IMG/VR virus record: IMGVR_UViG_2687453780_000005
Coordinates: 52,196-116,195 of that record
From: a virus
Lineage: Duplodnaviria; Caudoviricetes
Reading direction: 5' to 3' (one strand)
DNA length: 64,000 bases
Part shown: in pieces, positions 7,671 to 57,105 of the stretch
Numbering within the stretch: the stretch's first letter is position 1
How the letters are laid out: every line of letters begins with the position of its first letter
Notes under the pieces: generated by a model
Databases searched by the model: none
What the model was told of the DNA's origin: nothing
The model's input: the letters and a program-made list of their open reading frames with translations, nothing else
Position numbers and translations under genes: made by a program

Positions 7671-8731
7671 TTGAAAGTAAACATATACACAATAGGCAAG
7701 AAAACGTTAATCGGAACTTACAATGTAAAATACGTTTATGATTCAAGTTTTTATTTTAGAGGTATGCCTACATTGTCAGCAAAAAGGTGTAGAGAAATAC
7801 TAAACATCGTATCGCCAAATTTCAAAATCGAATCGGAAACTTTGGTTATTGAAAACGTAGAAACAGGACATACCGGAATACAAAAGATACACAGAGGCGG
7901 TACTATTTTAAACTTTTAACAAGCAAATATCCATTTCATAGGGAGGTAGAAATATGATAAACAAAATTAATAAAATATTAGAGGAAAAGGGAAGTAAATT
8001 CAGAACTAAGGACGGTTTTACAATTTGCATGTACATCGGTCATTTAACATTTTTAAAAAGAAGTTTTGAAACACAAGAAGAGTGTTTACAATTTGTAAGC
8101 AGATAAAACGATTATTTTCTAGGAGGTTTGCATATGAGCAGAGAGCGTAAAGAAAAATGGGCAGTATGCGGCGAATACGGCGGTAATTTTACGAACCTTA
8201 AAGACGCTAAACAGTGCGCAAAAGAAGCCAGTAAAACTCCAGAACATGACTATGAAGCAAGTGTTACATTGATTGAAGAAGGTGCCCATTACATTGATTA
8301 TAAAAATGGAAAATGTACTCGTGATGGCTGGACTATAAAACACAAATAAAAACCGAATTTTAAAGGAGGACTCCATCATGAGAAAGCAGGAAAATTTGAA
8401 GTGTGAAAAATTACTGAAAAGAGCTATAAGAGTAGCCAAACAGGCAGAAGAAGATTTTTCTCTATCCGAGAAATATAATGTAATTAAAACTATTCATTCA
8501 TTTGGAAATGGAGGATCGCAAAACATGGAAAAAGAAATACAAAAATTATTAGAGGAAAACAGTTATTCGGTATCCGATGCAGAGGAAGCTATAAATTTTG
8601 TAGCTGCCTTACTAACAATCAGATTGGAAGATATTAAAAAGAATGAATCATATGCAACTAACAGCATTGATAGGTTAGATAAAGCTGTAACAGAAGTAAA
8701 TGATCTACTTTGGTTAGAGGATTTACAATAA
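7671..8731 (+). other. Small hypothetical ORFs (7671-7919, 7954-8106, 8128-8349, 8378-8731) separated by the junction palindrome
   Basis: RBS-preceded ORFs; motif at 7923, 8104 and 8347. Confidence 0.65.
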
Positions 8732-8732
8732 C

Positions 8733-8800
8733 ATATTTTATTCCCAGTTTGAAGCCATTAGATCATGTGTCTAGTGGCTTTTATAGTGGGAATAAAATAT
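8733..8800 (+). other. Long imperfect hairpin (processing site or terminator)
   Basis: 14-bp arms 8733-8746/8787-8800 plus 11-bp inner arms 8752-8762/8770-8780. Confidence 0.6.
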
Positions 8801-8826
8801 TCAATAATTAAACGGAGGTAATTACA

Positions 8827-10497
8827 ATGTCAAATTATTATAATTATAGGGAAGTTAAAGTGATGATCGCCCATAGGTTGATGGCACTTGATGGTTGGAA
8901 AGTATATGACTATTCACCGGATCAGTCAGACAGTATGACAGACTATTATTGTCCTGCCACTTGGGGCGGTGTTGCAGAAAAGAACGGATATGTCCTTTGT
9001 GTTGACGTTTACGGAGCAAGGGAACCACAGGAAATTAGAAAATACAATCATACAGATTTTTCATATGATAGAAACATAGCAGACAAAATCAAGAAGCTGG
9101 AGGCAATGACAGTTGAGCGAGGCGCATCTGAAGCAGAAGCGGAAAGTGCAATAGTAATGATTGAACGATTGCAGAAGAAATCAGAAGCAGCAACAGAGAA
9201 TAAAGAGAAATATGTAGTTGTTGGTATGATACCAGGACACCAGGCACACCCGAATAAATGTAACTGGCACATAGAAAAAGATGGTATTATTATTGCAAAG
9301 GGTAACGGGATTCTGAAATATAGTGAAGTTGATTCATATTTCAGTCATGAAAATTACACCAAAGATATGCAGAACTTTAAAAAACAGTCCAAAGATGAGT
9401 ATATAAAAAAGAATGTTGATGATTTAATTTATCATAGATATTATTCAGACATTGAAAAGGCTACTAAATCAGCAGAAAGCCACTATGACGACATGATAAA
9501 TAAAAGCAAATTAGTGGATCAGTTTAATACATTTATTAATAAGCTAGATACCACTTGCGGAGGTCTTCTTGGAGAAGGTGACGGTACTATATATGAAAAA
9601 GTTATCGTTACAGAATACAAGAACGAAACAAAGGCCGTAGAAGTGGAGACTGGAGAAATTAAAGAGGGTCAATGTTTTATTCTAAAAACCAGTTTTATGT
9701 ATGGAAAATATAAGGGTCTTGTTTACCGCATTCATGAAAGAAAAACGGAAAACGGATCTTATTTTTATGCTTATAAACTCAATGGAAAACTTACAAAAGA
9801 GTGTACCGGAAGCGCCTCAAGTAATAACAAATGGGGAAGTTTTGGAGAAAGGTTTTTAAAGTGGATTGAAACAGGAGCTATTTCATGGTGTGAACTTAAG
9901 GAAGTAAAAACACCATATGAAGTGGAAAAGGTGGTTAAAAAGTCCATTGGCAATAGCAAGGTGGAGACAAAGAAAAAAGAAACCGCAACTACTACCTCAG
10001 AAGGAGAAGAACAGAGGGTAACTATTTCAACTACGTATACCTATGATATCTCAGAAGACATTGACACAAGAGACAATTCTAATATTTGGGTTGTAAAGGT
10101 AAAAGAGTCATTAAGCAGAGAAGAGTATAAACAGCTTAACCAATCAATGAACGATATAGGCGGATATTATTCACGCTTTAAGCATGGATTTATATTTAAA
10201 GAAAATCCAGAAGTTTTGTTAAACGTTGAGACGGTTGCAAAGGCCGATGATCCAACAGAAAGTAACCAAGAAGAGAAGAAGGGACCAGAAAAACAGAAAC
10301 CCGCCATTGAATACGATATTACGGAAGATAAAAGTCCATCAGGTAAAATCAACTATTTACTAAAAATCAAAAATGAATTATCTAAAGATGATTTTTCAGA
10401 AGTCAAGCGTAAATTTGCGAAGATACAAGGGTATCATAGCAGCCAAAAGGACGGTTTTATATTCAAGTACAATCCAGCAGAAAAATTGATTATATAG
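8827..10497 (+). CDS. Multidomain polyvalent-type protein with a DUF2786-like segment and a duplicated C-terminal domain
   Basis: KIKKLEAMTVERGASEAEAESA; two copies of YDI.ED...LS..(Y/F)...G(G/Y)...GFIFK.NP. Confidence 0.55.
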   Translation: MSNYYNYREVKVMIAHRLMALDGWKVYDYSPDQSDSMTDYYCPATWGGVAEKNGYVLCVDVYGAREPQEIRKYNHTDFSYDRNIADKIKKLEAMTVERGASEAEAESAIVMIERLQKKSEAATENKEKYVVVGMIPGHQAHPNKCNWHIEKDGIIIAKGNGILKYSEVDSYFSHENYTKDMQNFKKQSKDEYIKKNVDDLIYHRYYSDIEKATKSAESHYDDMINKSKLVDQFNTFINKLDTTCGGLLGEGDGTIYEKVIVTEYKNETKAVEVETGEIKEGQCFILKTSFMYGKYKGLVYRIHERKTENGSYFYAYKLNGKLTKECTGSASSNNKWGSFGERFLKWIETGAISWCELKEVKTPYEVEKVVKKSIGNSKVETKKKETATTTSEGEEQRVTISTTYTYDISEDIDTRDNSNIWVVKVKESLSREEYKQLNQSMNDIGGYYSRFKHGFIFKENPEVLLNVETVAKADDPTESNQEEKKGPEKQKPAIEYDITEDKSPSGKINYLLKIKNELSKDDFSEVKRKFAKIQGYHSSQKDGFIFKYNPAEKLII

Positions 10498-10503
10498 GAG
10501 TGA

Positions 10504-55318: not shown

Positions 55319-55764
55319 AAAACTATTACGTATATCTCGCCGGGAGCATGACTGCTTTTGGTGTAGATAGATATCATTAAGGAAACCAATGGAGAAAAGA
55401 AGCAAAGAGAAAGCTGTTTCGGTTGGCTGACTTATATGGAGCAATTAAAAAACCGGTGACTATCAATCCTAACGATCACTTTTCTTTCCTAGATGATACT
55501 GCATATAAAAGTCAAAGGGAAATTAAAGAACTAGACTTACATAAGGCAAAGAATAGTGATTTGATTATTGTTAATTTCAATACTAATAACAGCATTGGCA
55601 CATCAAAGGAGATTGCCATTTGCCACGATAAGGGGGTTCCTGTTATCGGCTTGAATGAGCAGAACTTAGAGCTGCACCCATGGGATATTGACGATTGCAA
55701 CAGGATATTTGATGATATGGACGAAATGCTTGAATATGTAGCTAAGCATTATTTGATGGATTAG
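55315..55764 (+). pseudogene. Nucleoside 2-deoxyribosyltransferase-like gene interrupted by an in-frame TAA
   Basis: ATA start after GGAGG; YVYLAGSM...YH, TAA 55378-55380, GNQWR...; downstream SDLIIVN and SIGTSKEI. Confidence 0.65.
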
Positions 55765-55779
55765 GAGGTAAATACAAAA

Positions 55780-56019
55780 ATGAAATATTCAATAGAAACA
55801 ATTAAAGGTGGCTGTGTCGAAACCATTATTTTAAGTGACGGAAGTACATATTTAAAGAAACATGTGAAAACAGATTTCGGATCTGAATGCTGTGATAAAG
55901 ATTTTTCGGAACAGATGGAGAGCGATGGGATTTGTCCTGAAATACTTGAAAAAGTATATGATTCGTTTGACGGATTCCTTGCAAGCGACTTCATGAGTAT
56001 TGGCGAGTTAGATTGCTAA
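55780..56019 (+). CDS. Hypothetical protein
   Basis: AGGAGG RBS and ORF. Confidence 0.6.
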   Translation: MKYSIETIKGGCVETIILSDGSTYLKKHVKTDFGSECCDKDFSEQMESDGICPEILEKVYDSFDGFLASDFMSIGELDC

Positions 56020-56290
56020 AAGCTAAATAATCGGAGATTTTGTGATGATTATTTGAATTAAAAATAGGAGTATAAAAATGGATATGTTTAAAGATATGTG
56101 CGTAAAACAAGGTTATGTGCCACCTACCTGCTTATTGGAAGGTCAGCTTTGTTGGCTACTAGTTCAAAGCCAAGGAGACCCGTGTAAAGGCTGTAATTGT
56201 GACCGAGAAAAGTGTAATGGAAGAAATAGAGAGTAACTAAATCTTAAGATAGAAGGGTTATTTTATTAGGAATGAGAGAGGAGCGATCAT

Positions 56291-56776
56291 ATAAAAATTA
56301 TATTTTTAGATATTGATGGGGTCTTGAATTGTCAATCTTCAAAGTCTAAGTGTAACGGACTAATTGGGATTGATAATGATAAGGTTAATAACCTTGCTGA
56401 CATAGTAAAGCATACTGAAGCCAAAATAGTTCTTTGCTCTTCGTGGAAAGATTGTTGGGAGAGGGTAAATAAAGAAGATCAACATGTGTTAGGTAACTAC
56501 TTGGATAAAAAACTAAGAAGAAAAAAACTGTTTATATTCGATAAGACAACTGACGACGGAAGCAATCGAGGAGATGGTATAACAAACTGGCTTAATAATG
56601 TCAAGGCTCATCACAAAGTAGAATCGTGGATTGTCATAGATGATGAAATCTTCAAAGACTATGACCACTATGGAATTATGAAGCATTTGGTTAAGACGGA
56701 GTTCTATAACAGTAGCGGAGGACTTCAATGTGAGCATGTAGGTAAGGCGATCCAATTATTAAATAATTGCGACTAA
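56291..56776 (+). CDS. HAD-domain protein (RNA-repair-associated HAD type)
   Basis: In-frame extension to ATA 56291 gives IKIIFLDIDGVLN (HAD motif I); IVLCSSW; WIVIDDE. Confidence 0.82.
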   Translation: MKIIFLDIDGVLNCQSSKSKCNGLIGIDNDKVNNLADIVKHTEAKIVLCSSWKDCWERVNKEDQHVLGNYLDKKLRRKKLFIFDKTTDDGSNRGDGITNWLNNVKAHHKVESWIVIDDEIFKDYDHYGIMKHLVKTEFYNSSGGLQCEHVGKAIQLLNNCD

Positions 56777-57105
56777 AGGAGATTTCTATTAGATAAATGA
56801 AAGGATTAAAGAGTGAATAATTTTTAGATGATGGTAATGATTGATGATTTACACGCAGAATTAGAGAGAATTATAAAGAGAGACGGACACGGGAAGACAT
56901 GGATTCTGTGTGGCAGTGAAAATGTATCTGATAACAATGACAAAGTGATTGATCACATTGCAAGAAAACCAATCGGATTTGATGAAAGTAATAGTTTTTG
57001 CTATGTGTTATGTACAAAAGAAGCAGGTAAAGGCTGCATGAAATATACCCGTGAAAATTCACGTTGATATAGATATTACATAAATGAATGGAGGAGCTTT
57101 ATAGA

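Follow-up and report, generated by a model that had tools for sequence, protein, structure and literature searches.

Heterospecific lox and FRT sites, available in two or three variants with 13-bp arms, serve in the laboratory for recombinase-mediated cassette exchange. On Acinetobacter Rep_3 plasmids, xrs/pdif sites occur several to a replicon, have a 6-bp central region and are recombined by host XerC/XerD (PMC11705084). Cointegrates form there only between closely related central regions, modules are not excised, and a two-step process of cointegration and resolution has been proposed to swap genes (PMC11705084). In T4-type phages, the repeated intergenic elements termed PeSLs mediate modular shuffling in hyperplastic regions (PMC2839356), and in SPbeta the SPBRE operators are bound by MrpR/YopR/SroF (PMC10516654). 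Here we analyse 64,000 nucleotides of viral DNA (positions 52,196 to 116,195 of IMG/VR record IMGVR_UViG_2687453780_000005; hereafter the window), in which a short palindrome, consisting of two inverted arms around a 6-bp centre, recurs at gene junctions. A first-pass annotation of the window had listed 39 copies, all of which are present, and had interpreted them as integron-like. Comparison with related genomes indicates that the sites are very probably the joints, or breakpoints, of gene exchange. We propose that they probably act as addressed crossover joints, site-specific and spacer-matched, at which phage genomes residing in one cell swap segments.

A spaced palindrome at gene junctions of an SPbeta-like prophage

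The window covers the early/replication arm of a prophage of about 115.5 kb (G000:C2:3234613-3350081, G000 being the host genome with contigs C1 and C2), which has at both ends a 43-bp direct repeat resembling a tRNA segment and a GC content of 34%, against 43% in the host, presumably a Clostridia-type Bacillota. The prophage encodes DnaB, primase, DnaE, NAD ligase, NrdD, methyltransferases and an MrpR-like repressor; its terminase, portal, tail and replication families are common to SPbeta, and we assign it to the SPbeta-like phages. Six relatives were compared, namely A (G101), B (G102), C (G103), D (L031), E (G104) and F (G105). The records of E and F are incomplete, with the slot of the gene at 18553-19581 assembled in both, and the integration type and integrase differ between relatives.

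The strict pattern TRAAA-N6-TTTYA matches 11 times in the window, against 2.35 ± 1.46 expected and a maximum of 7 in 100 dinucleotide shuffles, while other spacer lengths (2-12) give 1-5 matches each, so that both the enrichment and the preference for a 6-bp over a 5- or 7-bp spacer were borne out. Trained on the window, a symmetric arm matrix likewise favours spacer 6 in relatives outside its training set (77 against 28-35 in A, 71 against 21-30 in B and 45 against 25-28 in C). The host genome shows neither a spacer-6 preference nor enrichment of the motif (72 against 52-75 on C1, 93 against 82-105 on C2). The two accessory regions have site densities of 1.27 and 0.99 per kb, compared with 0.24 per kb in the replication block (36.7-49 kb), where spacer-6 counts equal those of control spacers; the first-pass annotation had not seen the motif at the junctions of this block. 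About 45 sites occur in this prophage and 45-60 per phage, nearly all with different centres and co-oriented. Copies at 8485, 14326, 14586, 16795, 19579, 20041, 24776, 27793, 35357 and 57065 had been missed initially, and the arm, described as 5 bp, is informative over 6 bp, the extra position being an outer A/T, and has invariant inner AA/TT. In SPbeta and phiCD211, weak outer pyrimidines extend to about 11 bp, giving an 11-6-11 layout. The inverted arms, 6-bp central region and inner AA/TT are all present as in xrs/pdif modules, and the proposed compatibility with tyrosine-recombinase core sites holds. The sites lie inside operons, between stop codon and ribosome-binding site (RBS), and do not overlap the sigma-A promoters of the lytic operons, unlike SPBRE-type operators. 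As had been noticed, the left arm is often the upstream stop codon; this is the case in 50 of 222 validated copies from seven phages and is the most frequent single offset. An RNA signal was rejected, as there was no Rfam match except one tRNA and no folding excess. One further strong motif copy, at 47126, lies within the NAD ligase gene and is kept in A, B and C with homologous flanks; it could be an intragenic address or a chance match.

Centres as addresses shared by divergent phages

Collinear identical centres link the window prophage with A, B, C, E and F at 36, 37, 34, 20 and 15 sites, respectively, where label shuffling gives maxima of 15, 14, 13, 10 and 11. Exact syntenic matches were found for 37 of the 39 sites listed originally; site 35911 is matched in other comparisons, and 33719 differs by a single base in A, B and F. 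The ligase of E is only 44% identical to that of the window prophage, yet E has 20 addresses in the same order. Of about 400 classified pairs (74 addresses), 310 have no related 120-nt flank on either side, the site forming an 18-bp island between different genes. In the first run of sites (7923..21969), the identical centre occurs at the syntenic spot in one to six relatives, mostly with unrelated flanks, and at 16795, where D differs by one base, the alignment block ends. Breakpoints between relatives fall on the motif, as the first-pass annotation anticipated, with 32 of 92 alignment-block ends in the accessory regions lying on a site (5.8% at random), often exact to the base. Within the second run, blocks begin or finish on 25991, 27566, 27793, 28349, 30408, 31259, 33719, 33976 and 35911; in the third, the unit 56250-56773 is missing in A and the join falls on a site.

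In pairs with one homologous flank, variable arm bases agree in 149 of 180 cases on the homologous side and 121 of 180 on the other (Fisher p=0.001; pairs not independent), and in pairs with unrelated flanks arm identity is no higher than the consensus predicts. The arms go with their own gene, and only the centre is common to both partners. Since the arm bases follow the homologous flank, the crossover is placed at or within the 6-bp centre, a pattern that would be expected of strand exchange across a 6-bp overlap and not of annealing over 18 bp of homology. Homologous genes occupy overlapping slots in 124 of 128 pairs and other slots in 4. The relocated genes bear centres belonging to the slot that they now occupy, with a partial resemblance to the earlier ones, and in none of six genomes is a gene flanked by two copies of one centre.

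Published laboratory crossovers point in the same direction. Junctions between SPbeta and phi3Ts from evolved B. subtilis have been tabulated by Dragos et al. (10.1101/2020.05.06.055103, Suppl. Table 1), in which all phage-phage junctions but two have between 400 bp and 20 kb of homology, the two being junction 7 (30 bp) and N1 ('non-homologous'). We placed the junctions by converting the table coordinates, after verifying the offset with junctions 2/3 and 4/8. The site at phi3Ts 62422 / SPbeta 69423 lies within junction 7, and N1 terminates at SPbeta 116414, where a site common with phi3Ts 107396 begins. Both sites are islands with identical centres and unrelated flanks, and the chance of a random position falling inside a site is 1.4%. 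Laboratory support on matched-centre sites amounts to two events. Among tracts free of single-nucleotide polymorphisms between SPbeta and phi3Ts, 7 of 26 ends lie inside sites, against the same random expectation of 1.4%, and two tracts are site-bounded at both ends. The comparative pattern and the two published junctions are compatible with recombination restricted to matched centres.

The motif extends well beyond this group of phages. With the 18-bp pattern, spacer 6 yields 34 matches in SPbeta (2 and 3 for spacers 5 and 7), 30 in c-st (8 and 6), 30 in phiCD211 (4 and 7) and 12 in KKP_3916 (1 and 1), and most large gut relatives show a similar excess. With the 16-bp pattern, spacers 6 and 7 give 42 and 8 matches in E3, 29 and 5 in Tsamsa, and 34 and 12 in FADO. 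It is also the top de novo dyad in SPbeta, phiCD211, E, F and the genomes G125, G112 and G130. SPO1 and A511 contain zero sites, and Jenst and phage K one each. The sole site of phage K (NC_005880.2; 8376-8393 and 148207-148224) lies at the end of the terminal repeat and has the centre found downstream of yomM in SPbeta and phi3Ts; it may be a chance match or a captured fragment. A 7-bp-spacer variant in Basilisk (10 against 3) was rejected, its matches lying mostly off junctions and a second apparent dyad being a codon artefact in coding DNA; we therefore do not claim that spacer length co-varies with the enzyme.

We propose the following hypothetical course of exchange, in which (i) two SPbeta-like genomes would meet in one cell, as a prophage and a superinfecting phage or as two prophages; (ii) at each site, two inverted protein-binding arms would flank the 6-bp region of strand exchange; (iii) the 6-bp centre would serve as the address, recombination being efficient only between copies with the same centre, so that the matching partner would be the same position in the related phage; (iv) a crossover at one address would fuse the genomes and a second at another address would swap the interval, from one gene to many kb, with no flanking homology required; and (v) rare mismatch-tolerant events would shift a gene to a new slot, where it would take that slot's addresses. 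As the addresses are nearly all different and co-oriented, the genome would not delete its own genes.

Candidate enzymes and competing explanations

The prophage carries four tyrosine-recombinase genes, whereas the first-pass annotation had counted two and had put forward the one inside the array (18553-19581) as the enzyme of the sites. That assignment was rejected: the gene encodes a host Xer homologue, ends in a site as cargo does and is missing from E and F, which have 20 and 15 addresses in order, the interval in E being 755 bp of other genes. Because its product is 56-58% identical to that of a host gene that is single-copy in 44 of 48 congeners and located at the GC-skew switch, we identify it as a captured terminus Xer, carried as cargo and not the obligatory enzyme. 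Its best NCBIfam model is XerS, with a score under the cut-off. Four relatives carry this Xer copy as cargo (81-95% identity), and it may help to resolve dimers or disturb host segregation. In the host, xer is located together with a GC-skew maximum at C1:1.45 Mb, and the minimum is found at C2:1.42 Mb; C1 and C2 are probably parts of a single chromosome, because the maximum sits on one and the minimum on the other. No conserved motif-like dif site was found next to host xer in the flanks of ten congeners, and the host dif was not identified.

Besides the integrase, two further recombinases are encoded by the prophage. The left-end recombinase has no close counterpart in the relatives. The gene at the yomM position, which lies in the virion arm outside the window (G000:C2:3259133-3260113), has one in every near-complete relative, and of the breaking-joining families only the YomM tyrosine-recombinase cluster is represented in every one of the 11 motif-rich genomes. 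YomM proteins form a monophyletic clade (97/93) with the R-K-H-R-H-Y residues intact, and a structural model of the enzyme (predicted local distance difference test, pLDDT, 70.7) matches XerA, IntI4, Tn1549 Int and Cre, i.e. the Xer/Cre/Int fold. The YomM profile has no match in SPO1, K and A511, large Bacillota phages without motif enrichment. In this phage and in A, B, E, F and SPbeta, yomM is followed by a related address. In comparison with A and B, the gene at this position is swapped for an allele with 20-23% identity, itself 60% identical to the one in c-st, with homologous flanks and the downstream boundary at a site. We infer that the catalyst is likely a tyrosine recombinase; the YomM-type core recombinase of the virion arm is our leading candidate, with arguments for and against in balance. 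That YomM and some 50 ordered, mutually incompatible sites constitute a natural recombinase-mediated cassette exchange, a programmed 'sexual', slot-by-slot swapping of accessory genes between divergent phages without homology, is put forward more tentatively still.

Several observations weigh against addressed exchange catalysed by YomM. The YomM alleles of address-sharing phages are only 20-25% identical and fall into three subclades; a site lies within 700 bp downstream of yomM at only 18 of 46 loci, so that most have none adjacent, compared with 8-10 for control spacers; and an informative arm of about 6 bp, as in the window's clade, is short for a stand-alone recombinase site. Sundance is not enriched (4 matches against 5 and 2) despite an intact YomM, and SEP9, 9183, AM12 and G110 are at best weakly enriched. 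The phi3Ts coordinate of N1 in the published table is 14 bp off the site, and our mapping starts from table coordinates, not from epDNA contigs. Packaged laboratory hybrids (Hyb1-3, PP526179) were set aside as uninformative; they crossed over in long identical tracts or off-site (Hyb3), which implies that ordinary homologous recombination also operates. The model does not account for the origin of new address-flanked genes, and binding or recombination of the site by any enzyme is something that we infer.

The alternative that survives best keeps the addressed crossover joints and assigns them to a catalyst other than YomM, either a host Xer-family enzyme or a nuclease that makes a staggered cut across the centre, followed by sticky-end religation. 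Such ligation would yield the same address logic, this phage and its relatives encode an NAD ligase, and one arm consensus is maintained across Bacillus, Clostridium, Alicyclobacillus and Lachnospiraceae-type phages although their YomM alleles have strongly diverged. However, the host chromosome is not enriched, phages of the same hosts that lack YomM also lack the site, the inner arm is unlike the XerD-arm consensus (general knowledge; PMC11705084), the NAD ligase family is absent in 4 of the 11 motif-rich genomes and no nuclease family is universal, so that we regard a different catalyst as unlikely.

We consider it improbable that the palindrome is a binding site for a regulatory or nucleoid protein which doubles as a short homology island, used in single-strand annealing or in microhomology recombination independent of RecA (the classical 'linker' idea), while selection retains joins at gene boundaries. 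The position of the sites between stop codon and RBS would suit such a role, SPbeta-like phages have a recombinase-fold repressor (MrpR; PMC10516654) with a homologue at 23030, and a Sak-like annealase is encoded at 37269. Annealing would nevertheless homogenise the entire 18 bp, whereas address specificity is confined to the centre and each arm goes with its own gene; a pure binding site offers no reason why about 50 distinct centres should stay identical between phages whose ligases share 44% identity. The relatives do not have the Sak-like gene in common, and the repressor probably has separate boxes flanking sigma-A promoters.

An integron-like mode, in which RBS, reading frame and site are excised as single-gene circles and reinserted elsewhere by the 18553-19581 recombinase, is the least credible reading: reading frames often terminate within the site, four homologous genes occupy other slots and an intact recombinase lies inside the array, but the genes are slot-bound and their order is conserved, relocated genes take new centres, no centres are repeated around a gene, and the recombinase is the host Xer homologue missing in E and F. 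The attC R''/R' boxes occur at background frequency and the mean folding z is -0.06 over 46 sites, with no hairpins. Scanning of three of the recombinases, the fourth being the integrase beside attR, with the IntI-family model TIGR02249 gave 75, 70 and 27.5 bits, against a cut-off of 265. Order and slot fidelity, unduplicated centres and absent attC features largely rule out the integron mode envisaged in the first-pass annotation. Insertion of circular cassettes (address, gene, same address) was also rejected; no such duplicates exist, and neighbouring centres are marginally more alike than chance (p ~0.1).

Neighbouring features and relation to known systems

The positions of the sites and of adjoining genes are collected in Table 1. 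The replication module at 36800-46000 (Sak-like annealase, DnaB, primase, DnaE) is 85-93% identical to that of F and about 25% identical to those of A, B, C and E, a difference that points to a whole-module swap. Four copies of an element of about 85 bp lie at 1670-1750 (- strand), 22388-22471, 35378-35463 and 48935-49027, each a sigma-A promoter (-35/-10) between two copies of the same 13-15-bp A-rich box. These boxes are probably operators of the MrpR-like repressor, analogous to SPBRE, and the repressor likely reads them rather than the junction sites. A PemK/MazF-like gene (22504-23055) lies directly upstream of the repressor gene, a position as in the SPbeta lysis-lysogeny operon, and a tRNA gene (49049-49120) directly follows the fourth promoter element. 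The anaerobic ribonucleotide reductase gene nrdD (57088-60399) contains an intein with a LAGLIDADG domain, an insert of about 1.1 kb that is missing in B.

Table 1. Junction sites and other features of the window (site positions are starts of the 16-bp core)
Feature	Position	Strand	Remarks
Addressed sites, first run	7923..21969	.	7923, 8104, 8347, 8485, 12162, 13013, 13326, 13604, 14076, 14326, 14586, 14878, 16795, 17264, 17479, 18070, 18345, 19579, 20041, 20762, 21023, 21720, 21954
Example address	12162..12177	.	Found in all six relatives
Addressed sites, second run	24776..35926	.	24776, 25991, 26323, 26783, 27566, 27793, 28349, 30408, 31259, 31322, 32053, 33719, 33976, 34657, 35261, 35357, 35911; centres common to relatives, in order
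Addressed sites, third run, after the replication block	50049..57080	.	50049, 51154, 52390, 52905, 54417, 54715, 56250, 56773, 57065
XerS-like tyrosine recombinase	18553..19581	+	Host-lineage capture, cargo in slot; the left arm of site 19579 coincides with its stop codon
MrpR/SroF-like master repressor, recombinase fold	23030..23989	+	ESM Atlas features score 0.98 to MrpR clusters; no HxxR motif
Replication block (Sak-like annealase, DnaB, primase, DnaE, NAD ligase)	36700..49000	+	Without enriched sites; exchanged as a block in relatives
Prophage integrase, tyrosine family	62672..64000	+	Adjoins attR

Precise swaps of non-homologous genes at gene boundaries are a long-standing question in phage evolution, and are usually ascribed to random illegitimate recombination followed by selection. 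The breakpoints are predicted here by a defined site, which is also present in SPbeta and phi3T, both model phages, as well as c-st, phiCD211, Tsamsa and E3, and with which two laboratory crossovers coincide. The question can be tested directly in existing B. subtilis strains. If true, addressed exchange would give the modular 'linker' theory of phage evolution a molecular basis, and a short-arm recombinase with dozens of orthogonal 6-bp addresses would be a useful tool for genome engineering. A literature search that covered few subscription papers returned no description of the site. What is new here is the mapping of two short laboratory junctions to sites and the exclusion of the in-array recombinase.

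With integrons, the phages share small promoterless reading frames bounded by recombination sites, a stop codon that often lies inside the site and a tyrosine recombinase in the genome. They differ in having no folded attC and no IntI above the cut-off, in centres that are bound to a position, in the conserved order and in replacement rather than insertion at one attI. PeSLs are longer, combine a promoter with a stem-loop, recombine by homology and form mini-circles, whereas the sites described here are 16-18 bp long, hairpin-free and mutually incompatible. The SPBRE operators resemble them as a repeated intergenic motif of SPbeta-like phages to which a recombinase-fold protein binds, but number about nine, lie at promoters and have a catalytically dead reader, a role that the promoter-flanking boxes of the window fit instead. 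The xrs/pdif modules are copies of the XerC/XerD dif site, few per plasmid and often inverted; the phage sites follow a symmetric non-dif consensus, number 45-60 per phage in an ordered, co-oriented series and are probably read by one phage enzyme. Their arms are symmetric and do not match the conserved xrs flanks (PMC11705084), with no distinct XerC and XerD arms. The SPbeta-like sites would thus work like xrs exchange, by analogy, and are not considered members of xrs/pdif because they are not copies of the XerC/XerD dif site. Exchange at lox and FRT sites offers a further parallel, with common arms, a spacer whose identity picks the partners and a double crossover that swaps the segment. 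Addressed exchange in SPbeta-like phages would be a natural version of it, with short arms and dozens of addresses.

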